NCBI GenBank assembly: GCA_022703055.1
Contig: JAKLEP010000003.1
Coordinates: 86,238 to 150,237 of the forward strand
Reading direction: 5' to 3'
DNA length: 64,000 bases
Source of the DNA: Candidatus Omnitrophota bacterium
GTDB lineage: Bacteria > Omnitrophota > Gorgyraeia > VGKH01
Shown: positions 100 to 64,000 of the stretch, in pieces
Position numbering within the stretch: position 1 is the first letter of the stretch
Layout of the letters: every line of letters starts with the position of its first letter
Program-made: the position numbers and the translations under genes
Notes under the pieces: model-generated
Seen by the model: only the letters and a program-made list of their open reading frames with translations
Database searches by the model: none
Told to the model about the DNA's origin: nothing

Positions 100-1033
100 T
101 TAGTCCAGTAATGCCCGTATTTCATGGCCGACTTTCTTAGGATCAATAAAATACATGCAATTTTTTCTACTCCGACAGACAACATTTAAACATGGCATGC
201 AGGAATAATTTACTTTCGGTAATAATTTTACGCCAAGGCCATAAAGATATATTTCTTTATGGGATGTTGGACCAAACAAGGCTATAATTTTTTTTCCTAG
301 CGCTATAGCAATATGAAGCCCTAAACTGTCATTGGTTACAATAAGGCGGCAGGAATTTATCCACTCTATATACTCACGGATATCCTTTAGTCCTTGCTGC
401 CAGGATATTGAGAAATCTTTCTTCATGATATATTCTAATTGCTGCCAATATTGTTTTGGCCAACTTTTATTAGGCCATTTTGGCCCAACCGCCCAATTAA
501 AACCAATATCAAATTTGACCTTAGAATGAGGTTTATATCCGAGCTTATATTTTTCGCCATTCCATTCCTTGCCCAACATATGCATAAGCGCTTGCTGCCA
601 ATATTGCTCATTCTTCCGTTTTTCGGCTAAATCAAAAGAAAGTGCTAAAACACGTTCTGCCCCGTCGTATGATTGAGCTTCGCCGGTAATTTCGTCAAAC
701 CTGAAGCCAAACCTACGCCAGGCATTAATAGAGTCAGACAAGGCACAAACTCCGGGAATTTTTTCAAAATTCAATATAGTATCAAATCTTTCACTCTTAA
801 GCTGCAAAACAGAGCTTAAGTTATAAGCAAGAATCCTGTGTATATATTTATTGCCTTCGAGCAGTGGAAAAGCTTTTTCATCGGTTAGCCAAGTAACATG
901 GTCATTTTTAAAGGCATCCAAAAACAACCGTAGTGCGTAACACATCCCCCAAGCTAATCTCCTTATCTAAATGCCCGTCTAAAGTTTCGCTAAAACCAAT
1001 TTTAATAATAAGTACTTTTGAATGTTTGCGCAT
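100..1033 (-). pseudogene. Glycosyltransferase family 9 (heptosyltransferase-like) gene split by a 1-nt frameshift in an A5 run (920..924)
   Basis: The 281-aa ORF (100..945) carries the GT9 C-terminal signature LIVTNDSLGLHIAIALGKKIIALFGPT. The expected GT9 N-terminus MRKHSKVLIIKIGFSETLDGHLDKEISLGDVLRTTVVF is read from the ATG at 1033 in another frame and stops at 910..908. Removing one A/T from the homopolymer at 920..924 joins them as ...GDVLRTTVVLDAFKNDHVTWLT..., giving about 310 aa. Confidence 0.75.
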
Positions 1034-1060
1034 AATCTTTCCTTTTTTAATTTGCGATAG

Positions 1061-2392
1061 CTATTGTTTAAAGTTCATTAAAAAAACATTAAATATTTTT
1101 TCTATATACTTTAATTTTGTCTTATCAATGCCAGGATATACGCCTACCCAGAAAAGGTTATCCATTACTGAATCAGTATTAGTCAGTTTTCCGCTTACGC
1201 GATATTTGGCCTTTTTGTATGCCGGCTGCTTAATAAGATTTCCTCCGAAAAGCAATCGTGTAGCAATTTTGTTTTTTTCCAAGTAACTTACAATATCTAT
1301 TCGTCTGAATGGAGCTTGTTTCTTCACTAAAATTGGAAACCCAAACCAGCTTGGATCGGAATTTTTAGTTGGTTCCGGCAAAAGCAAATATTTTTGATAT
1401 TTTTCCAAAGATTGTCTCAATGAAGCGAAATTTCTTTTTCGCGCCTTGATAAATCCAGGCAATTTCTCTAATTGGGCAAGACCAACCGCCGCTTGTAAAT
1501 CAGTAATTTTAAGGTTATACCCTATATGTGAATAAACATATTTATGGTCGTATCCATGTGGCAAATCTCCGAATTTTTGGTTAAATCTTTTTTTGCAGGT
1601 ATTATCATACCCTGGTTCACACCAGCAGTCCCTCCCCCAGTCACGAAATGATAAAACAATCCTTCGCAATAATGGATCGTTAGTTAAAACCGCCCCTCCT
1701 TCACCGGTTGTTATATGATGGGCTGGATAAAAACTGCAAGTAGAAATATCCCCGAAAGTTCCGGTATATTTCTTCCGGTATTTTGAACCAAGGCTGTCGC
1801 AGTTATCTTCTATGAACCAAAGTTTATATTTTTTTGCGATAAGCAAAATCTTGTCCAAATCCGCGGGGTTACCAAGCGTATTAGCGATAAAAATAGCTTT
1901 AGTTTTTTTAGAGATAGCCTTTTCAATTTTGTCGGCTTGGATATTATATGTCCCCAGATCGATATCAACAAAAACTGGAACTAAATTATTCTGGATAATA
2001 GGATTTAAGGTAGTTGGAAAACCGCAGGCAGTAGTAATAACTTCATCCCCTCTTCTAAGCCTACGACCTTTTAGTAGCGGAGAAGTCAAGGCAGAAACTG
2101 CCAAAAGATTGGCGGAAGAACCTGAGTTAACAAGCAGGCAATGCTTTACCCCTAGAAACTTTGCCAGACGTCTTTCGAATTCACGTGCGTTTTTGCCAGC
2201 AGTCAACCAGAAATCCAAAGAAGCATCGACAAGGTTTATGAGTTCTTTTTCATTATAGGTTCGTCCGGCATACAAAACCGCATCCTTACCTTTAATAAAT
2301 TTAAACGATCCTTTGCGGATTTTGTATAATTCTTTTATTCGCGAGAATATTTCACTTTTTATTTGTTTTTCTTTTTTTATCATTTTTTTCAA
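1061..2392 (-). CDS. rfbH: CDP-6-deoxy-D-xylo-4-hexulose-3-dehydrase (E1; RfbH/DdhC), DegT/DnrJ/EryC1 family
   Basis: 443 aa. The blocks LVNSGSSANLLAVSALTSP, GDEVITTACGFPTTLNPIIQN, IANTLGNP and WFIEDNCDSLGS match my recollection of RfbH. It sits next to rfbF and an rfbG-like gene. Confidence 0.85.
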   Translation of the reverse strand: MKKMIKKEKQIKSEIFSRIKELYKIRKGSFKFIKGKDAVLYAGRTYNEKELINLVDASLDFWLTAGKNAREFERRLAKFLGVKHCLLVNSGSSANLLAVSALTSPLLKGRRLRRGDEVITTACGFPTTLNPIIQNNLVPVFVDIDLGTYNIQADKIEKAISKKTKAIFIANTLGNPADLDKILLIAKKYKLWFIEDNCDSLGSKYRKKYTGTFGDISTCSFYPAHHITTGEGGAVLTNDPLLRRIVLSFRDWGRDCWCEPGYDNTCKKRFNQKFGDLPHGYDHKYVYSHIGYNLKITDLQAAVGLAQLEKLPGFIKARKRNFASLRQSLEKYQKYLLLPEPTKNSDPSWFGFPILVKKQAPFRRIDIVSYLEKNKIATRLLFGGNLIKQPAYKKAKYRVSGKLTNTDSVMDNLFWVGVYPGIDKTKLKYIEKIFNVFLMNFKQ

Positions 2393-55274: not shown

Positions 55275-58200
55275 CTATTTCTGCTTCTCTTTTTCCTTTT
55301 GTTTTTCCTCTAAGATCCGGTTGGTGATTTCTTGGGGAACCTGGGTATATTTATCAAATTTCATCGAGGCATGGACATGGCCGCTGGTAAGCGATCGGAA
55401 TGCCGAAGCATAACCAAACATTTCAGACAATGGCGCCTCGGCCAAAATCAATTTCTGATTGCCTTTGGATTCCATATTCATGACCTTGCCTCGGCGCGAA
55501 AATATATATCCGGTAATATTGCTGGCATATTCTTCGGGAACATTTATTTCAAGCGCCATGGTCGGCTCCAGTAACACCGGATTACATTTCATAAATCCAG
55601 CTCTAAAACCCCCCATCGCCGCCAACTTAAATGCGATATCTGATGAATCAACTTCATGATACGAACCATCGACAAGATTTACTTTCACGTCAGTGACCGG
55701 ATATCCTGCCAAGACTCCCCGCTGCATCTGTTCTTTGAGCCCTTTTTCCACCGAGGGGATAAAATTCTTTGGGATTGCCCCGCCTTTAATACTATCAATG
55801 AATTCGAATTCTGTCCCGCGCTCACCCGGAGAAATCTCAAAGACAACATGCCCGTATTGGCCGCGTCCGCCGGATTGCTTGACGTGCTTGTATTCTTCGG
55901 TCACCGAACCTAGGATAGTTTCCTTGTAAGCGACCTTGGGACGCCCCACTTCCGGCTGGACATTGAATTCGGTTTTTAATCTATCGACAATAATCTCAAG
56001 ATGCAACTCGCCCATTCCCATGATCACGGTTTCCTTGGTATCCTCGTCGGTGCGCACCAGAAACGTGGGATCTTCTTCCATCAATTTTGCTAAACCTTTA
56101 CCCAATTTGTCCTGTTCTGAGCGGCTCTGCGGCGCGATACTGATTGATACAACCGGCGTGGGAAATTCTATGGCTTCAAGCAGAATCGGCTTCTTCAATG
56201 AACACAGCGTATCGCCGGTAATGGTATGATTCATCCCGATTAATGCCACGATATCCCCGGCAAAAGCCACATCCACTGCCTCACGCTGGTTGGCATGCAT
56301 GCGGAAAATCCTTGAGACTCTTTCCTTTTTATCCTTGCGGCTGTTTAAGATATAAGTTCCATTACGCAGATATCCGGAATAAATCCTGACATAAACCAGT
56401 TTTCCCATGTGCGGGTCAGCCTGGACCTTAAAGGCAAATCCCACAAAGGTATTTTTATAATCCGGCGGGACTTCGATTTCCACGCTGGGATCATCAGCGT
56501 CATGGGCTTTGACCGCCGGTAAATCAACCGGCGAGGGAAGATACGCGATAACAGCATCCAAAAGATTCTGTACGCCCTTATTTTTCAGCGCTGCTCCGCA
56601 AAGAAGCGGCACCATTTTATTAGCGATAGTTCCCCGGCGGATAGCCGCAACTAATTCCTCTTTAGAAATAGAATCCTTGGCTTCCAGGTATTTATTCATT
56701 AACGACTCATCGTGGGTTGCGATTTTCTCAATCAAGATATGGCGATATTTATCGGCTTCGGCTTTTAAATCTTCCGGGATTTCTTCAATTTTGATTTCTT
56801 TGCCCTGAGTCTCTTCGTCATAAATGCATGCCCGCATTTCCAATAAATCAATTACCCCGCGGAATTTATCTTCAGCCCCGATGGGGATCTCAAGCGGAAG
56901 GACATTTGCCTGGAACTTATCTTCGATATCTTTGACCACGCCAAAGAAATTTGCGCCCATGCGGTCCATCTTATTTATAAATGCGATTTTGGGCACGTGA
57001 TATTTGTCGGATTGCCTCCAGACCGTCTCTGACTGAGCTTCTACGCCGCTTACCGCGTCAAAAACCGCAACCGCCCCGTCTAGAACTCTCAGGCTTCGCT
57101 CAACCTCGACTGTAAAATCAACGTGGCCCGGAGTATCGATAATCGTAATCCTGTTATCCTTCCACTGGCAGGTGGTGGCGGCCGCTGTAATGGTGACGCC
57201 TCTTTCCTGCTCCTGCTTCATCCAATCCATGGTCGCTTCGCCATTGTGGACTTCACCAAGTTTATGGGATCGTCCGGTATAAAATAAAATCCTCTCGGTC
57301 AAAGTAGTTTTGCCGGCGTCGATATGCGCCATAATCCCGATGTTTCTGGTTGTTTTGACATCAACCTGAGGCTCAGGCAATGGCTCTTCTTTTTCAGGCT
57401 CTTCTTCTTTTTTCTCGACGACAGGAGCTTCTTGCGGAACTGGAGGCTGTTCTGCTTCCGAGGCCTCGATCGGCTCAGCTGGCGCTTCAACTGGCGGCAC
57501 TTCAACTAATGGAGTTTCAGCCGCAGGGGGTTGCTCTGCGACTGGCGGCGCTTCCTCAATTGGCTTTTCAACTTCAGGAAGCGCCGCCCCTTCGATCTTT
57601 GCCTTATTCTTTAAAACCAATATTTCTTCCTCTAATTCTTTTATCTTATGGTCTTTTGACTCAATGAGCGCTTTTTTGGTTTCAAACTGGTTTTTGATGT
57701 CCTCAAATTCTTCTTTGAATTCTTCGAATTGAATCTCAAGCTTCTTGTGGAATTCAGCAGAAACCCAGCCGCTTTCCTCTTTGGCTTTTTTCATCTTATT
57801 GATGGTTGCAGTATGTTCCTTGATTTCTTTCTGGCGGGTCTTGACCTCTTCGATATATTTCTCTATCTGGGTCTTTAGGCTAAAAACTTCTTCAGAGAGC
57901 TCTTTATTTTTCTTTTCTTCGTTCTCCAGCTCAGTTCTTACATTATGCAATTCTGCAGCCAGCTGTACATTCTTTGAGAATTCATTGCTTACCTCTTGCT
58001 CTTTCTTATGCAGTTCATTCTGGAAGCCGATGCTTCTCTGGTCTGAATTCTTGGCGATCTCGTCGGCTTTTTTCAGCCATTCTTCGCGCTTGGCCAATTC
58101 ATCCAATAACTGCTTCTCTTTTTCTTGCGCACTGTCGGAGATTTTCTTTATAGCCTGGTAATCAACCTTTAATTTCTCCAGCTCCTGGCGATAGGCATTG

Positions 58201-58376
58201 GCCTGGCCCTGGTATTTGGTGATTTCTTTCTCTTCCTGGGCAGGATCAATCTTGATTACCCGGTTTAGAGACGGCCTGGGTTTTTGGGCTTTAGTGTCTT
58301 TTTCAAACAAGGCGACGTAAAAGAAGTAAAGCGCGCCTGCGATTGCCACAAAAGCCATAAAAAAAGTTGCTTCCAT
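55275..58376 (-). CDS. fusA: Elongation factor G with an N-terminal extension of about 333 aa (TM helix, long K/E coiled coil, P/E/A-rich linker)
   Basis: Residues about 344-1033 form a complete EF-G: [28 protein letters not shown] and YHEVDSS. Residues 1-343 are in frame with no stop and include [20 protein letters not shown], heptad-like K/E-rich sequence and [37 protein letters not shown] and ATG are at 58376. Confidence 0.85.
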
Positions 58377-58421: not shown

Positions 58422-58449
58422 ATTATAGCAGAACCACGAAAGTTTTCAA
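58422..58449 (-). promoter_or_regulatory. Sigma70-like promoter TTGAAA-16 nt-TATAAT upstream of the EF-G fusion
   Basis: Minus strand reads TTGAAA (58449..58444), a 16-nt spacer, and TATAAT (58427..58422). That places it about 45 nt before the ATG. Confidence 0.45.
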
Positions 58450-58509: not shown

Positions 58510-58651
58510 ACAAAGTCAACACCGGATTTTTATCATCCACTCACCTACCAGACGCACCTCCTTTTTTTGTTCCCCTCCCTGGAAGGATAAGCAAACGAAC
58601 CTTCCAGAGAGGACGCTGCTAGCGGCTCATGTTAAATCATAAGCCACGGAT

Positions 58652-59038
58652 CTAGCAACAGCAACAGCTACTTTCTTTTGCCTTAGAATCCTCTTTTGTG
58701 TCTTCTTTGTGCAGGCTGCCCTCCAGGGGATAACCCGCCTCTTTGTAATCCTCCAAGCCGCCCTTGTAATCAAGGACCCTCTTAAAGCCAAGAGCCAACA
58801 ATTTCTCTGCCGCCTTCGTACTGGCCTGACATTCAAAGCTGGCGCAATAAGTCACCAACTTATCGCTCTTTTTGAACATCGCCTTAGCCGTTTGGTCTAT
58901 CTCATCCACCGGTAGAGAAATCGAGCCTTTGATATGCTCTTGATCATAAGACTCATGGCTTAGGACATCAATCAGCTTAAAAGGTTTCTTCGAAGACATC
59001 AATCTTACCAAATCGTCTCTAGTAATCTTTTTAATCAT
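58652..59038 (-). CDS. Rhodanese-domain protein with a C-terminal tetra-cysteine tail
   Basis: Active-site-loop region VTYCASFECQAS and GFKRVLDYKGGLEDYKEAGYPLEG. The protein ends in KESSCCCC. AAGGAGG SD. 128 aa. Confidence 0.8.
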   Translation of the reverse strand: MIKKITRDDLVRLMSSKKPFKLIDVLSHESYDQEHIKGSISLPVDEIDQTAKAMFKKSDKLVTYCASFECQASTKAAEKLLALGFKRVLDYKGGLEDYKEAGYPLEGSLHKEDTKEDSKAKESSCCCC

Positions 59039-59080
59039 TGTAGCCTCCTTTAGTTAACTCACCTATTCGCTCGCAGCCTA

Positions 59081-59106
59081 CAGGCAATCATTTTCTTGAT
59101 TGCCTG
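59081..59106. promoter_or_regulatory. Perfect 10-6-10 inverted repeat CAGGCAATCA-N6-TGATTGCCTG (operator or RNA hairpin) between the small ORF and the rhodanese gene
   Basis: Read directly from the sequence. It overlaps the small-ORF stop codon and sits about 45-65 nt upstream of the rhodanese ATG. No U tract follows it. Confidence 0.4.
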
Positions 59107-59237
59107 CCTCTCCGCGTGCTGGCTGAATCACAACAAATCAAGGTTGGAAACGCTACACCGAACTGCGAGTAAATGGGGTCAAAACACACTGAACAAACTT
59201 GCGATCTTTGCCTTCTAATCATTCTTCTAGTCTTCAT
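59088..59237 (-). CDS. Unannotated 49-aa basic, Cys-containing small ORF
   Basis: AAAGGAGGGCAAA-ATG provides a strong SD with 5-nt spacing. Translation is MKTRRMIRRQRSQVCSVCFDPIYSQFGVAFPTLICCDSASTRRGRQSRK. It falls below the 60-aa cut-off of the ORF track. Confidence 0.4.
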   Translation of the reverse strand: MKTRRMIRRQRSQVCSVCFDPIYSQFGVAFPTLICCDSASTRRGRQSRK

Positions 59238-59342
59238 TTTGCCCTCCTTTTTTCTTCCAAACTTTAGATGCTGTCATTATCCAAAAGTTTCATTTATTTT
59301 GGGGCAAAATTTTAGAGCTACTTGGGGGGGGCTAAAAAGGGG

Positions 59343-60152
59343 CTATTTTTGGCGTAAAAACTCGAAAAACAGGGAATCAATCTTCTGGTGCAGATCATCG
59401 GGGATATCCTGGCACTGCAGGGCATTGGTGATTTCTATCGCCTTATCATAAGTATGCAAAAAGGCGCTGCATTTAGGGCAATCCTTGATGTGGCTATCGA
59501 AATAATCGGCCTTTTCCTTATCTAAGTGGCCGCGGGCATAATCATAGACAAAACCGGTAAGCTCCTGGCAGTGGTTGGAGGGCTTATGGAGCTTTTCTTC
59601 CTTGTCCTTGTAATAATCGATAATATGGGATTTAATCATCAGAATTGAGCGATGAATCCTGGTCTTCAGTGAATTAAGCTTCAAATCCAGGATTTCTGCC
59701 ACTTCTTCCAGCGGCATGCCTTCGATAAAATGCAGCAAAAGCGGCATGCGGTACTGGATGGGCATTTCGCTGATGGTATCATCCAGGCGAGCCTTAAACT
59801 CCTCATCCAGAAGATGCTTATCGCCTCTCTCCGGCCAGTTCACGTAAAGGCCCACGCGCCGGTCCTTGGTTGAGCGCCTAAGGCTGTTGGCGATATTAAA
59901 CTGGCTGTATCTTTTCCTTAATAGCATCAGCGCCTCGTTGTAGGCGATTTTGTAAATCCAGGTGGAAAGCTTGGATTGCTGGCGGAAACTATCCAGGTTA
60001 TTCATTATCTTGATGATGGTATTCTGGGTGATGTCTTCGGCGTCGCGGTCATTGCCGGATAGCCCCAAGGCCAGGCGGTAGATTTTACCTTTGTATTGCT
60101 TGTAGATTTCCTCGATATTTTCCTTGGTGGGCATGGCTTTATTATTACACAA
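59343..60152 (-). CDS. ECF-type sigma-70 factor fused to a C-terminal zinc-finger anti-sigma (ZAS, zf-HC2) domain
   Basis: Region 2 is DAEDITQNTIIKIM...WIYKIAYNEALMLLRK. Region 4 is LEEVAEILDLKLNSLKTRIHRS. These are followed by CQELTGFVYDYARGHLDKEKADYFDSHIKDCPKC (C...HxxxCxxC). No TM segment is present. An alternative start MPTKEN lies at 60134. Confidence 0.8.
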   Translation of the reverse strand: MCNNKAMPTKENIEEIYKQYKGKIYRLALGLSGNDRDAEDITQNTIIKIMNNLDSFRQQSKLSTWIYKIAYNEALMLLRKRYSQFNIANSLRRSTKDRRVGLYVNWPERGDKHLLDEEFKARLDDTISEMPIQYRMPLLLHFIEGMPLEEVAEILDLKLNSLKTRIHRSILMIKSHIIDYYKDKEEKLHKPSNHCQELTGFVYDYARGHLDKEKADYFDSHIKDCPKCSAFLHTYDKAIEITNALQCQDIPDDLHQKIDSLFFEFLRQK

Positions 60153-62106
60153 TTAACTGCTTAAGTAAATCCTCGATTTTGGCGTCGATTTCCTTGATCT
60201 GGCTTTGGATTTCCTCAAGCTTTAATTCGTAGCCTTTGATCATTTCTTCGTCGCGGTATTTGTGGGGATTGTCGATTGCCTTCTGCATGACTGAAGCTTC
60301 AAGCGACAGTGATTCTTTTTGCCGTTTGAGTTTATTGATTTTATTGCCCAGCGAAGTATTAAAGGCCTTTTTCTTCTTTTTATCCTCTTTGCGCGAGCGC
60401 TCCTTATCACGCTTTAGCCTTTCAGCGTGGGAGATTTTTGGCTCGGCATCTCCTGATTCTTCGGATTCTTCCAATTCTTCATCCGAGATAATTTGCGGCT
60501 TTCTTATGGGAAGTGTGGCGCGGTTTTTATTTTCCAGGTAATAATCGAAACTGCCCGGGAATTCGCGGATCCGTCCGTCTTTGACTTCAAAGACGCAATT
60601 TGCCAAGGCTTGCACAAAATAAATGTCATGGCTGATAAAGACGATTGTGCCTTCGTAGGATTTCAGCGCGCGCACCAGCGCCTCCACCGCGTCCACGTCT
60701 AAATGCGTGGTGGGCTCATCAAGGCAAAGGAAATTCGGCGGATTAATCAGAAGTTTGGCAAGAATCAGACGGCTCTTTTCACCGCCGGATAGAATCTTGA
60801 CTTTTTTATCTACGTCGTCTCCGGTAAAAAAGAATGCAGCTAAAATCGTGCGCACGGTTTCTTCCGGCTTAAAACCCACCGCTGCCGAATATGCTTCTTC
60901 CAGAACTGTGCGATTTTCATTCAGGACATCCATGCGGGTCTGGGAAAAATAGCCGATTTTTACATTGTGGCCGACAGTCCGGCTGCCACTGTCTATTTCT
61001 AAGGCGCCGGCAAGCAATTTCAAAAGAGTTGACTTGCCGGCGCCATTCTCTCCTGCTAAAACTGCTTTTTTGCCTTGGGTAATCTCAAAATCCAAATCTG
61101 CATAAACCTGCACGCCAGGATAGGACTTCGCCACCTTCTCAAACTTTATCACCCGGTAGCCGCTGCGTTTGGTGGGAGGAAATTTAAAAGTGCGGATGCT
61201 TTCCCGGTAATCCTGGGGCACATCAATTTCGTTCTCCGCCATTTTCTCCAGCACGCGTTTTTTGGCACGCACCTGGGCGGCCTTGTTGGGCTGGGCGTGA
61301 AAGCGCTGGACGAATTTGGTCAACTGCTCAGTCTTTTTCTCCTGCTCCTTGAATTGCTTTAAAAGAAAGACGCGCCTTTCTTCCTTAATCTGCTCGTAAT
61401 GTTTGTAATCGCCGGAGACTTTATGAATCTCGCCGTTTTCCAACACCAGAGTTTGATTAGTGACTTCGGTCAGAAAGGCCTTATCGTGGGAAATCATCAC
61501 AAAAGTGCCTTTGAATTTATTCAGATAATCCTTAAGCCACAATGCCGCGTTTAAATCCAGATAATTAGTAGGTTCGTCAAGTAGCAGTAAATCATAATGA
61601 AAGGTCAATAGCTTGGCAAGGAGTGTCCTCATCTGCCATCCGCCGCTTAAATGCTGGATGGGACGATTAAAGTCTGTCTCTTTGAATCCCAAGCCCATTA
61701 AAATCTTTTTGGCTTTATGCTCGATGTCAAAGAATCCCAAGGTTTCTAAATTATGCAGGATATCTCCGTAGCGCATTGAGCCGGCTTCGTTTTTATTTTC
61801 CAGCTCTTCTTTTTCTTTCTTTAATGCCTCAATCCGGCTGTCGCCGCTGGTGAGTTCCTCTAAAACCGTACGCTCTGATGAAAATCCCGATTCCTGGGGC
61901 AAATATCCGATACTTATTCCTTTTAAGACCTCAACGCTGCCGCCAGACGGGCTAATCTCGCCTAATATAAAGGAAAAGAGCGTACTTTTTCCCGCGCCAT
62001 TTGGCCCGACCAAGCCAATCTTCTCTCCGCGGTTAATGCTCAAATTCACATTCTCGAAGAGTGTCTTCGCGCCATAGGTTTTACTAAGGTTTTGGATTAT
62101 AACCAT
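60145..62106 (-). CDS. ABC-F family ATPase (two ABC domains, no TMD; translation-factor type) with a Lys-rich C-terminal coiled coil
   Basis: GPNGAGKST and GENGAGKST Walker A motifs, LSGGWQMR and LSGGEKSR signatures, and an inter-domain linker; 653 aa. Confidence 0.9.
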   Translation of the reverse strand: MVIIQNLSKTYGAKTLFENVNLSINRGEKIGLVGPNGAGKSTLFSFILGEISPSGGSVEVLKGISIGYLPQESGFSSERTVLEELTSGDSRIEALKKEKEELENKNEAGSMRYGDILHNLETLGFFDIEHKAKKILMGLGFKETDFNRPIQHLSGGWQMRTLLAKLLTFHYDLLLLDEPTNYLDLNAALWLKDYLNKFKGTFVMISHDKAFLTEVTNQTLVLENGEIHKVSGDYKHYEQIKEERRVFLLKQFKEQEKKTEQLTKFVQRFHAQPNKAAQVRAKKRVLEKMAENEIDVPQDYRESIRTFKFPPTKRSGYRVIKFEKVAKSYPGVQVYADLDFEITQGKKAVLAGENGAGKSTLLKLLAGALEIDSGSRTVGHNVKIGYFSQTRMDVLNENRTVLEEAYSAAVGFKPEETVRTILAAFFFTGDDVDKKVKILSGGEKSRLILAKLLINPPNFLCLDEPTTHLDVDAVEALVRALKSYEGTIVFISHDIYFVQALANCVFEVKDGRIREFPGSFDYYLENKNRATLPIRKPQIISDEELEESEESGDAEPKISHAERLKRDKERSRKEDKKKKKAFNTSLGNKINKLKRQKESLSLEASVMQKAIDNPHKYRDEEMIKGYELKLEEIQSQIKEIDAKIEDLLKQLIV

Positions 62107-62147: not shown

Positions 62148-62669
62148 TTAGGGCTTGGGTAAACCTAAGAAATCAAAAGGTATTTCATTAAAGAAATAAT
62201 AACAACCGACTGATTTCACAAATTCAAGAACGTCTTTATATTCGTTCTTGGCGAACCAATCATTTAGAACATAGACGTATTTAACGGTTATATTTAGTGG
62301 GGCGAGAAGTTTCTGGTATTGTTTGTTTTTGAAATCGCAAGTCTGAAGTTTCTCATCTACAGATCCGGAAACTTCTTGAAATTTAATCTCAACAATAAAT
62401 AGAGTATTGTTGCTAAAAATAAATATCGCGTCATCTGGAAGCAATTTTTTGGAAATAAGTTTCTTATAATCAACACCTTTGGGCTCAAGTAGATTCTTGT
62501 ATAATTTGTTTTTTGTGTAAAATCTGGCGACTTCCTGGCTTTTAAAATAAACGATGTCTCCGGAAATAGAGTATTCAGGCAATGCCTTGATAACCTCTTC
62601 TAAGGGTTTTCTTGACTCAAAATGCAATCCAGTGGCAGTATGGCTGCCTCCCTTTCCGCCCTTTTTCAT
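62148..62669 (-). CDS. PD-(D/E)XK-type nuclease candidate (putative restriction endonuclease subunit)
   Basis: LLPDDAIFIFSNNTLFIVEIKFQ gives a PD...ExK arrangement. 173 aa. It lies in an AT-rich block downstream of the methyltransferase. Confidence 0.5.
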   Translation of the reverse strand: MKKGGKGGSHTATGLHFESRKPLEEVIKALPEYSISGDIVYFKSQEVARFYTKNKLYKNLLEPKGVDYKKLISKKLLPDDAIFIFSNNTLFIVEIKFQEVSGSVDEKLQTCDFKNKQYQKLLAPLNITVKYVYVLNDWFAKNEYKDVLEFVKSVGCYYFFNEIPFDFLGLPKP

Positions 62670-62701
62670 AAAAGATCCTTTTTGTTTCTAATGAATTTTA
62701 T

Positions 62702-63256
62702 TTAAATATTTCTTATGCCTTCCATAAACATATTCCGGCCCGACCAATTCCAGTATCTTATATCTTGTTCAATAAAGAACCATTTTACGATTTTCAAGAT
62801 TAATTCATTCGATAATCCTTGGTTCAATGAAACTAAATGCTGTATATATCTAGAATATATATCATCGGGATCATTGCAATAAAAAACTTCTTCCAAAGCC
62901 TCTACTAACTTATTATACGCTTGCGCATTAAGCTGTTTTTTATTTTGTAAATCTTGCTTTATATCATCGTGCTTAGGATTATCTTTGCCATTCATAAAAA
63001 TATAATTTTCCACATGAACAATAAAATCAAACCCTTTATTCAAAGGAACTGGCCTTGTTAAATATACTTTTTCTCCAGAAGACAAAGTCTCAACAATATA
63101 TTTATATTTAGAAGTTTCTTCACCTTTTCCTCGCCCCGCGCTTTCACGTATAAAAGTATCGATAACAATTTTTCTTAAATTGTTCCTATTCTCTTCGTGG
63201 TTCTCAGATATTTCTGAAAGCTTTGCTGTCAAATTTATTGTTGGATGCAATACCAT
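62702..63256 (-). CDS. Hypothetical protein between the methyltransferase and the nuclease candidate (possible R-M component)
   Basis: 184 aa. I could assign no confident motif; the role is suggested by context only (13-nt and 32-nt gaps to its neighbours). Confidence 0.35.
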   Translation of the reverse strand: MVLHPTINLTAKLSEISENHEENRNNLRKIVIDTFIRESAGRGKGEETSKYKYIVETLSSGEKVYLTRPVPLNKGFDFIVHVENYIFMNGKDNPKHDDIKQDLQNKKQLNAQAYNKLVEALEEVFYCNDPDDIYSRYIQHLVSLNQGLSNELILKIVKWFFIEQDIRYWNWSGRNMFMEGIRNI

Positions 63257-63269
63257 AAAGGGGCTTCCT

Positions 63270-64000
63270 TTACAACTTCTCTTTAAAGGCGTCTTTTAGT
63301 CTCTTAACAGAAACTTCAAGATATTTCTTTTCAAGCTCAATACCGATATATTTTCTTCCTTGCGAAAAAGCCGAGACGCCTGTCGTGCCGCTGCCGTTAA
63401 AAGGATCAAGGACAATATCGTTTCGCTTTGTTGAGGCAAGGATAATCCTGTTTAAGAGCGCAAGCGGTTTTTGGGTGGGGTGTTTTCCGTAAATTTTCTC
63501 TCCATTTTTTGGCGGGTATATTTCCCAGAAACTCTTCATTTGTTTTCCGCCGGCCATTTCTTTCATCAATGTATAATTGAATAAATGTCGACTATGTTTA
63601 TTTTTGGCTGCCCAGATAATTGTTTCAGTTGAATGGGTAAAATAACGACAGCTTAAATTTGGCGGCGGGTTTATCTTAAACCAGGAAATATCGTTTAATA
63701 TCTTAAAACCTAATTGCTGCATAGCATAACCGACGGAAAAAATAATATGCGAAGTCCCAGAAACCCAAATTGTTCCGTCCGTAGTTAATACTCTTTGGCA
63801 GGCAGAAAGCCATTGTTTATTAAATTCGTGATTAGCCTCGGGACCTTGAGATTTATCCCATTCGCCCTTGTTTACCGAAACCATTCTGCCGGCATGACAA
63901 GTTATTCCGCCATTTGAGAGAAAATAAGGTGGATCAGCAAAAATCATATCTATGGAATTCTCGGGAATTTGAGCGAGGATATTTAAGCAATCTGCTTTGT
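63270..64000 (-). CDS. Beta-class N6-adenine (or N4-cytosine) DNA methyltransferase, DpnA/M.MboIB/HinfI-like; 5' end lies beyond the window
   Basis: Motif IV DPPY (IFADPPYFLSNGG) precedes motif I (DPFNGSGTTG), which is the beta-class order. NLSCRYFTHSTETI and GKHPTQKP are also present. The frame stays open to 64000 (...KADCLNILAQIPENSIDMIF). Confidence 0.9.
   Translation of the reverse strand, partial: KADCLNILAQIPENSIDMIFADPPYFLSNGGITCHAGRMVSVNKGEWDKSQGPEANHEFNKQWLSACQRVLTTDGTIWVSGTSHIIFSVGYAMQQLGFKILNDISWFKINPPPNLSCRYFTHSTETIIWAAKNKHSRHLFNYTLMKEMAGGKQMKSFWEIYPPKNGEKIYGKHPTQKPLALLNRIILASTKRNDIVLDPFNGSGTTGVSAFSQGRKYIGIELEKKYLEVSVKRLKDAFKEKL

Follow-up and report, generated by a model that had tools for sequence, protein, structure and literature searches.

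The 64-kb window analysed here (the whole stretch of DNA under study, 64,000 nucleotides of contig JAKLEP010000003.1 from assembly GCA_022703055.1) derives from a Candidatus Omnitrophota bacterium and carries a compact module encoded entirely on the minus strand. Its first gene (59343..60134) encodes an extracytoplasmic function (ECF) sigma factor fused to a soluble zinc anti-sigma (ZAS) domain, and is followed by an ECF-type promoter (59264..59291), an unannotated gene for a 49-residue miniprotein with a CxxC...CC cysteine arrangement (59088..59237) and a gene for a single-domain rhodanese of 128 amino acids (58652..59038). The initial annotation of this region, made from the sequence without database searches, had proposed a one-polypeptide redox switch controlling a pair of cysteine-rich effectors. 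The fusion, the promoter link between the sigma gene and the pair, and the coding status of the small open reading frame (ORF) all hold up in our analysis, whereas redox sensing itself is a prediction.

The ATG of the sigma gene lies at 60134 and yields a protein of 263 amino acids; position 60152, originally taken as the end of the gene, is an alternative in-frame TTG upstream of this start that would give 269. Profile searches place sigma region 2 at residues 10–75 (59910..60107; PF04542 Sigma70_r2, E=1.3e-15) and sigma region 4 at residues 116–163 (59646..59789; PF08281 Sigma70_r4_2, E=7.8e-13), and the two are separated by a linker of ~40 residues with neither sigma1.1 nor sigma3, which is the ECF architecture. 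The ECF superfamily model TIGR02937 scores 91.7 bits against a cutoff of 42.9 bits (NCBIfam), while the best of the more specific models, PRK11922 and SigW, stay below cutoff, as do all the others. The AlphaFold2 (AF2) model has a mean confidence (pLDDT) of 84.7, which rises above 90 in the C-terminal domain, and its best Foldseek matches are the ECF sigma factors SigH, SigW and AlgU; together with the NCBIfam results, these put the core sigma nearest to the SigW, SigH and AlgU-type ECFs. Foldseek with the full-length model matched the sigma part only and does not show where the anti-sigma domain docks.

Beyond a short linker of ~12 residues, the chain continues in frame into a class-I anti-sigma (ZAS) domain (residues 187–262, 59349..59576), recognised from its conserved residues, profile matches and the AF2 model, in which helices span residues 187–200, 206–215, 220–236 and 246–262. 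As first noticed in the initial annotation, the protein enters a complete zinc anti-sigma motif, C189-x25-H215-IKD-C219-PK-C222, with no transmembrane segment (the highest Kyte-Doolittle 19-residue mean in the sigma protein is 0.94). These residues and C241 are the candidate ligands, and the four cysteines C189, C219, C222 and C241 are the only ones in the protein, each inside the ZAS domain. On the whole protein the zf-HC2 model of Pfam scores 21.4 bits (E=2.8e-4) against a cutoff of 22.2 bits, and this rises to 23.6 bits when the C-terminal fragment is scored alone; across the family, zf-HC2 is recognised in 17 of 23 members. A profile of the C-terminal 78 residues retrieved DdvA (1.6e-3), RsrA (4.7e-3), RsiW and RslA from the PDB, the sole match that is not an anti-sigma factor being the computationally designed protein 8tl7 (E=0.69), and the RsrA alignment runs over the full length, from the first ligand cysteine (C11) to the D-D-V-P-G-D-L helix. 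By its motif, and likewise by its four-helix fold and anti-sigma homology, the C-terminal domain is thus a ZAS domain; it departs from the usual case of a separate polypeptide encoded beside the sigma gene, being fused in frame in all the ~260-residue homologues.

A homology search with the sigma protein returned 438 significant matches (the counts below come from the best 120), with more than 400 of them full-length and almost all labelled Omnitrophota. Among the best 120, nearly all measure 250–290 amino acids and cover 91–100% of the query, and those that are named bear the label Candidatus Omnitrophota. The pattern C-x24-27-H-x3-C-x2-C is kept in 118 of these 120 homologues (the first interval is exactly 25 residues in 115 of the 118), and an alignment of 119 sequences shows no variation at C189, C219, C222, C241 and D243 and at least 90% conservation of H215. 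On these comparisons, the sigma-ZAS fusion is a conserved one-polypeptide design. Scanning the genome collection with the sigma profile gave a result dominated by generic ECF sigma factors, close relatives making up 5 of the 80 loci returned. Distant ECF sigmas with a related C-terminal extension were seen in L009, L011, L014, L015, L028, L032, L038, L051 and L066, from Planctomycetota, Eiseniibacteriota, Acidobacteriota and Gemmatimonadota; there the extension is without the histidine and reads C-x24-C-x2-C-x14-C...LP.

The start codon of the sigma gene lies 10 nt beyond the end of a gene for an ABC-F ATPase (60145..62106, minus strand; two ABC_tran domains and ABC_tran_Xtn), a synteny found also in L081, and this spacing and synteny indicate that the sigma gene is probably co-transcribed with abcF. 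Across the loci the preceding gene ends 2–26 nt ahead of the sigma gene, and in L083, L085, L086 and L094 it encodes the beta subunit of a 2-oxoacid:ferredoxin oxidoreductase. Position-weight-matrix scans of the loci found no copy of the downstream promoter motif upstream of any sigma gene, which, taken with this tight spacing, argues for constitutive transcription of the sigma factor and for control at the post-translational level.

The promoter itself, GAAACTT-N16-TCTAA (with the flanks aTGAAACTTT...gCATCTAAAg), has the hallmarks of an ECF promoter, namely an AAC-containing -35 element, a short -10 element and a spacing of ~16 nt, and occurs once in the window, against ~0.1 occurrences expected. 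When the pattern was relaxed to G[AG]AAC[CT]T-N16-TCT[AT]A, exactly one site was found in each of the related loci L001, L004, L005, L082, L083, L084 and L085, always at or just past the sigma stop and on the sigma strand. A weight matrix was built from these eight sites (the window and the seven loci), and L090–L093, fetched afterwards, served as a held-out set: in all four, with both strands scanned, the best matrix match fell no more than 15 nt from the sigma stop. The motif is present in L094 as well, so that the consensus tGAAAC(C/T)T-N16-(C)ATCTAAA stands at or just past the sigma stop in 13 of the 16 loci compared (the window included). In several genomes the TGA stop of the sigma gene forms part of the -35 element, and in others the promoter sits inside the 3' end of the sigma coding sequence, where it is read as E-T-F...K-H-L-N.

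The closest relative, L082 (the same organism as L088), has a sigma factor 80% identical to that of the window. In the alignment of the two, the DNA after the sigma stop is unalignable except for the island TGAAACTTT-N-CATCTAAA; past a variable 5' untranslated region, conservation resumes with the Shine-Dalgarno sequence and extends over the small ORF, the hairpin and the rhodanese gene. The -35 element TGAAAC is compatible with a SigW-like core, and from these patterns we infer that this sigma factor uses the tGAAACTT-N16 promoter. The position and conservation of the site support the view that it couples the sigma gene to the genes for the peptide and the rhodanese, and the matrix scan gave no further site, either elsewhere in the window or among the oxygen-defence neighbours described below. 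In L082, the non-conserved insert between the sigma gene and the promoter (925..1040) consists of short repeats, (A/T)ATCTGCG(T/A), that are absent from the window. In L004 the promoter is followed by a GC-rich leader of ~230 nt (2090..2320) and then by a gene cut by the contig end; this leader gave no convincing ORF and no Rfam match, and could be a structured RNA. In two divergent members no rhodanese follows, the promoter standing ahead of a very large gene with a TPS domain (two-partner-secretion exoprotein) in L091 (3779..) and of a DUF3568 gene in L093 (3839..), which indicates that the output of the sigma family is not fixed.

The first cistron of the predicted sigma-dependent transcript is the 49-residue miniprotein gene. 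Its ATG lies 105 nt past the sigma stop and is preceded, at a spacing of 5 nt, by a strong Shine-Dalgarno sequence (AAGGAGG, 59243..59249), just as described at the outset; its cysteines occupy positions 15, 18, 35 and 36, the first two as reported and the last two shifted by one from the 34 and 35 given there. The ORF had rightly been called unannotated: the exact sequence is absent from a collection of 15 billion proteins, and the NCBI proteins on either side are numbered consecutively (HOX54178 and HOX54177). Compared with L082, it shows a ratio of nonsynonymous to synonymous rates (dN/dS) of 0.09 at a dS of 0.60, next to 0.13 (dS 1.03) for the sigma gene and 0.15 (dS 0.455) for the rhodanese gene. 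Of the 19 differences, 13 are synonymous and 6 replace an amino acid conservatively, with 12 located at third codon positions (P=0.007); every other frame is interrupted by stop codons, and the synonymous rate is not depressed. The initial annotation had named a lack of such protein-level conservation as grounds for abandoning its proposal; instead, substitutions are biased towards synonymous ones and homologues sit in the same operon elsewhere. Judged by its substitution pattern and its homologues, the 49-residue ORF is a protein-coding gene.

These homologues define a family of 39–50 residues with the pattern CxxC-x16-17-P-x2-3-CC[ED] and a basic tail, present in nine genomes including the window, or 9 of the 16 loci; each of the eight members beyond the window lies in a sigma-adjacent operon. 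Gaps of 180–300 nt past the rhodanese gene in L002, L083, L085, L090 and L092 each hold an ORF of 44–47 amino acids (counted from the ATG) with a strong Shine-Dalgarno sequence and the common motif M-basic-C-x2-C-x16-17-(P-x2-3)-CC-[ED]-basic tail. The L092 member is without the second cysteine of the CxxC and matches the window peptide marginally (E=0.009), with FDP and CC[DE]S in register, and the 39-residue member in L094 retains only the P-x-CC part and the basic tail. The weakest member, in L001, is a 49-residue ORF immediately behind the promoter of a locus without a rhodanese; it was assigned to the family solely from its motif (C-x2-[CA]-G-F-x-P-[IV] ... P-L-V-L-C-E, followed by a basic tail), and BLASTP gave no alignment between it and the window peptide. 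In the lineage of the window the miniprotein gene precedes the rhodanese gene, whereas elsewhere it follows it, and in L083, L090, L092 and L094 the miniprotein ORF is itself followed by an intrinsic terminator.

Applied to 94 loci and the window, a regular expression for the family matched only family ORFs, each of them on the strand of the sigma gene and within the operon next to it. The gene had been called only in L092 and missed in seven of the eight genomes with gene calls. Pfam, NCBIfam and the PDB gave no match for the window peptide or for seven aligned family members; an exhaustive phmmer search of the peptide against 1.8 billion representatives returned three repetitive spurious ORFs only, without a self-match, and a word-indexed search with a three-peptide profile found only P0246, the L092 member. 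The only match in a metagenome scan for the peptide pattern, L087, was rejected as an out-of-frame reading inside an unrelated high-GC methyltransferase contig. In an AF2 model of the miniprotein whose confidence is too low to rely on (pLDDT 56.6), a strand at residues 13–18 pairs with one at 33–38, which would put the CxxC beside the CC. A possible paralogue of the family was called in L090 as a 50-residue gene ~670 nt upstream of the sigma gene (2180..2332). Its product, MARLKKGTKLVCQPCGRQVSVDCCGVSETTIWCCGRPMKNKNKAKSSQKK, has a basic tail in addition to CxxC and two CC pairs and is similar to the L083 miniprotein.

The 10-6-10 palindrome that the initial annotation had reported over the stop codon of the small ORF is indeed perfect (59081..59106 on the minus strand, with arms at 59081..59090 and 59097..59106), and its 3' arm opens with the TGA stop. 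It is unique in the window, and none of 100 shuffles produced a match. As RNA it folds into an 11-bp hairpin (-17.5 kcal/mol, z = -5.25) with no U-tract behind it, and L082 keeps the hairpin with an A-to-G change that preserves a G-U pair. A role as a repeated operator was rejected, as the window holds no second copy even with three mismatches. As a matter of speculation, the hairpin, lying at the stop and lacking a U-tract, may be a remnant of the terminator found after the miniprotein gene in other genomes.

The same hairpin lends some support to another reading of this region, in which the ~170 nt between the promoter and the rhodanese gene form a structured leader or riboregulator and the 49-residue ORF is fortuitous; the CTGCGAG segment just past the hairpin, moreover, is conserved in L082. 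The outer helix once proposed to enclose the palindrome fares less well. Both of its strands exist, CTCGCAG at 59163..59169 and CTGCGAG at 59070..59076 (1–2 nt from the positions first given), and they are unpaired in the minimum-free-energy fold. Rfam searches of the region and of five related loci gave nothing meaningful, and the z-score of the putative leader fold is only -1.46. Against a leader RNA stand also the strong Shine-Dalgarno sequence ahead of the ORF, its protein-level homologues in eight other genomes and its substitution pattern, with a dS that is not below that of the rhodanese gene, so that we consider this reading, also raised in the initial annotation, highly improbable.

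The rhodanese gene completes the module (PF00581, E=2.5e-16) and has its own Shine-Dalgarno sequence (AAGGAGG, 59044..59050). Its product carries the loop YC65ASFEC70QAST, and this two-cysteine loop, [VT]YCASF[ED]CQAST, is common to all 120 homologues listed. The closest solved structure is the uncharacterised BH2092 (PDB 3nhv), in which 'itYCwgpac' aligns with 'vtYCasfec' of the rhodanese and thereby matches Cys65, the predicted catalytic cysteine at the start of the active-site loop, as expected of a rhodanese domain; the protein may carry a persulfide. The tail SSCCCC is present as described, and 109 of the 120 homologues listed have at least one cysteine, usually two to five, within the last 12 residues. 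The patterns differ from one homologue to the next (CCCC, CSSC, CSCC, CCxC), which makes CCCC one form of a variable cysteine-rich tail rather than a fixed motif. Co-occurrence of these genes with the sigma gene in relatives is borne out: the rhodanese gene lies directly behind the sigma gene in 10 of the 16 loci, a figure that stands beside the 9 of 16 for the miniprotein. In L094 (3001..4179) the stop codon between the two is missing, which yields a 392-residue sigma-ZAS-rhodanese protein (P0013), and the fusion recurs in a second, independent assembly (ENA ERZ27297570); the fused L094 ORF retains the internal ECF promoter, the Shine-Dalgarno sequence and the rhodanese ATG. Past the rhodanese gene of the window, a stem-loop without a U-tract (58574..58612, minus strand; -24.2 kcal/mol, z = -4.0), identical in sequence in L088, marks the probable end of the operon.

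The design principle of such a protein is already known from the literature, which describes both fused regulatory domains and probable ZAS fusions among ECF factors. C-terminal regulatory extensions are the second commonest mode of ECF control, and zinc-finger fusions with transmembrane helices are known in ECF48, ECF52 and ECF53. In these groups (e.g., SCO4117) the sigma factor is likewise joined to a zinc-finger, probably ZAS, domain, but the extension runs on into transmembrane helices and long extracytoplasmic regions and is thought to be activated by proteolysis, whereas the Omnitrophota protein stops after the anti-sigma domain. SigR-RsrA of Streptomyces coelicolor and SigH-RshA of Mycobacterium tuberculosis (group ECF12) share with it a soluble ZAS domain of C-x25-H-x3-C-x2-C spacing in a thiol-stress setting. 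The ligands of RsrA are C11, H37, C41 and C44, the same spacing as is typical of the family. In contrast to the SigR-RsrA and SigH-RshA pairs, here sigma and anti-sigma form one polypeptide, no autoregulatory promoter precedes the sigma gene, the local regulon as predicted comprises a single small operon without thioredoxin genes, the core sigma is nearer to SigW than to ECF12, and there is an extra invariant cysteine, Cys241.

ECF41 factors reportedly carry a fused C-terminal regulatory domain, work without a separate anti-sigma factor, do not regulate their own genes and have one adjacent target with a conserved promoter. This one-component layout is the same as here; the extensions of ECF41 (SigJ) and ECF42, however, are SnoaL_2 or TPR rather than ZAS domains, and their targets and phyla differ. 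In CorE and CorE2 (ECF238, formerly ECF44), cysteines in the sigma C-terminus are the sensor, but they belong to a cysteine-rich tail of ~20 residues that binds Cu, Cd or Zn to activate, and not to a four-helix anti-sigma domain. By their published description, ECF270 and ECF271 are regulated through soluble ZAS partners, and a regulatory extension is listed for some members of ECF270 (Casas-Pastor 2021; PMC8999054). These groups resemble our case in soluble ZAS control and, for some ECF270 members, in the fusion; they are only predicted, their named examples come from Acidobacteria, Chloroflexi and Anaeromyxobacter, and the fused ECF270 members are classed under activation by proteolysis (PMC8999054). 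On the side of the effectors, BH2092, PspE and GlpE share the rhodanese fold with the catalytic cysteine after the central beta-strand, and BH2092, which has no assigned function, also has a CX4C loop (TYCWGPAC). None of the three has a cysteine-rich C-terminal tail, and the loop YCASF[ED]CQAST is specific to the rhodanese family of the Omnitrophota module. The literature searched contained no mention of the Omnitrophota sigma-ZAS family, and as far as we could find the soluble ZAS fusion whose one adjacent target promoter overlaps its stop, the miniprotein family and the rhodanese subfamily are apparently undescribed.

In relatives, the module lies near genes for desulfoferrodoxin, rubredoxin, AhpC/Tpx-type peroxiredoxin, DJ-1/PfpI, flavodiiron protein, an FNR-like reductase, MsrAB, hemerythrin and the oxygen-sensitive 2-oxoacid:ferredoxin oxidoreductase, a setting that favours oxygen or an oxidant as the trigger. 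Together with the motif spacing and the RsrA alignment, these neighbours make the fused ZAS domain a candidate redox sensor of the RsrA/RshA type. The interpretation we prefer, and hold to be moderately probable, is that the module works as a one-component ECF sigma switch, controlled post-translationally, whose dedicated output is two genes. The sigma gene would be the final gene in the transcript of a housekeeping operon, with no promoter of its own type upstream, and its C-terminal 75 residues would act as an RsrA-like zinc anti-sigma domain whose reduced, zinc-bound form folds onto sigma2 and sigma4 and blocks the binding of sigma to RNA polymerase. Oxidation or another covalent modification of C189, C219, C222 and C241 would then expel the zinc, collapse the domain and free the sigma factor, the likeliest trigger in this anaerobe being oxygen and reactive oxygen species (ROS) or disulfide stress. 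The freed sigma would initiate at tGAAACTT-N16-CATCTAAA, just beyond its own stop codon, and the transcript would encode the CxxC/CC miniprotein and the rhodanese with its CX4C loop and poly-cysteine tail, which together may serve as a thiol or sulfane-sulfur (or metal-thiolate) relay or buffer. Thiol stress is the probable stimulus of the module, which is conserved in the Omnitrophota loci sampled.

Several points weigh against this interpretation. The ideas of zinc binding, of inhibition within one molecule and of redox sensitivity are carried over from RsrA and RshA, and many ZAS domains, RsiW for example, are not redox sensors. The oxygen-defence neighbours carry no copy of the promoter motif in the matrix scan, which reduces the argument from context to guilt by association, and the TPS-domain and DUF3568 genes show that other genes can stand behind the promoter. 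The fused C-terminal domains of ECF41 and ECF42 also act positively, so that simple auto-inhibition may be too simple. Finally, the sole predicted targets are proteins of a sulfur or thiol type, which sulfane-sulfur or metal sensing would fit equally well.

The strongest competitor, which we nevertheless think fairly unlikely, keeps the same architecture and takes reactive sulfur species as the signal: the ZAS cysteines would become persulfidated or bridged, as in the chemistry of CstR, SqrR and BigR, and the rhodanese and the miniprotein would dispose of or relay sulfane sulfur. Omnitrophota habitats are anoxic and often sulfidic, which suits this idea, as does the fact that only genes for a sulfurtransferase and a cysteine-rich protein lie behind the promoter. 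Among the distant sigmas, moreover, those of L011 and L014 (Eiseniibacteriota and Planctomycetota) are followed by genes for metallo-beta-lactamase-rhodanese fusions of the persulfide-dioxygenase type, and in L011 also for a YgaP-like rhodanese, which keeps a sulfur signal alive. To our knowledge, on the other hand, no ZAS domain senses reactive sulfur species; no sulfide:quinone oxidoreductase (SQR) or persulfide dioxygenase was seen beside the Omnitrophota loci, where the neighbours are oxygen and ROS defence genes. A further point in favour of a sulfur signal is that rhodaneses are reported to limit sulfane sulfur and disulfide stress (PMC9163753).

If the C-terminal Cys/His domain were instead a metal sensor of the CorE/CorE2 type (for Zn, Cd, Cu or As(III)), with the rhodanese and miniprotein as metal-thiolate buffers or chaperones, the vicinal cysteine pairs and poly-cysteine tails would find a ready explanation as typical ligands of soft metals, and metal-sensing ECFs with cysteine-rich C-termini are known (ECF238). 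A cation-diffusion-facilitator-like exporter behind the L002 operon (recognised by sequence inspection only) and a ZIP transporter near the L084 operon keep this idea in play, yet these are just 2 of the 16 loci. The domain, besides, aligns to anti-sigma domains over a full ZAS geometry rather than to a CorE tail, and the conserved catalytic loop of the rhodanese points to sulfur chemistry over pure chelation; metal sensing is thus unlikely in our judgement. More improbable still is a constitutive role of the fused domain, structural or positive and required for binding RNA polymerase or the promoter, for which the positive roles documented for extensions of ECF41 and ECF42 offer a precedent; the operon would then simply follow sigma expression, and the cysteines would sense nothing. 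Inhibition by the fused domain is so far a matter of prediction, which leaves room for this view; the invariant set of zinc ligands and the homology to bona fide anti-sigma domains speak against it, and a sigma gene placed last in housekeeping operons would then make the output constitutive and a dedicated sigma factor pointless.

Should the one-component switch operate as proposed, it would be a minimal stress circuit, an example of how thiol-stress sensing may be built from a single protein, a single promoter and two tiny effectors in a phylum that is mostly anaerobic and largely uncultured; the parts are small enough for direct testing in a heterologous host. A soluble sigma/ZAS fusion conserved in the sampled members of the phylum adds to the known one-component ECF designs, and its layout is unusual in that the target promoter overlaps the stop codon of the regulator and, in some genomes, its last codons. 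The overlooked family of 39–50-residue proteins with a cysteine motif is a concrete case for the annotation of small ORFs, and the rhodaneses form a subfamily defined by the CX4C loop and the poly-cysteine tail. A bolder extension, to which we give little credence, is a closed three-part circuit in which the rhodanese and the miniprotein reset the ZAS domain of their own sigma factor by re-reducing, de-persulfidating or re-metallating it. If true, this would be a private negative-feedback loop in place of the thioredoxin feedback of SigR-RsrA, and the miniproteins would represent a new, Omnitrophota-specific class of shuttles for zinc or sulfur.

Two further observations concern genes on either side of the module. 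Upstream of the ABC-F gene, three adjoining ORFs on the minus strand (62148..63947; 173, 184 and 225 amino acids), the last of which has an N-methyltransferase motif of the DPPY type (MIFADPPYF...), look like a small restriction-modification cassette. The next gene downstream of the rhodanese (55275..58376, minus strand) encodes a 1033-residue EF-G homologue with five EF-G domains at residues 342–1020 and has its own near-consensus sigma-70 promoter, TTGAAA-16-TGnTATAAT (58449..58422). Its N-terminal extension of ~340 residues has no Pfam match and, by inspection, has a hydrophobic N-terminus, a Pro/Glu-rich stretch and a long stretch rich in Lys and Glu; tethering to a membrane would be unusual for an EF-G paralogue.

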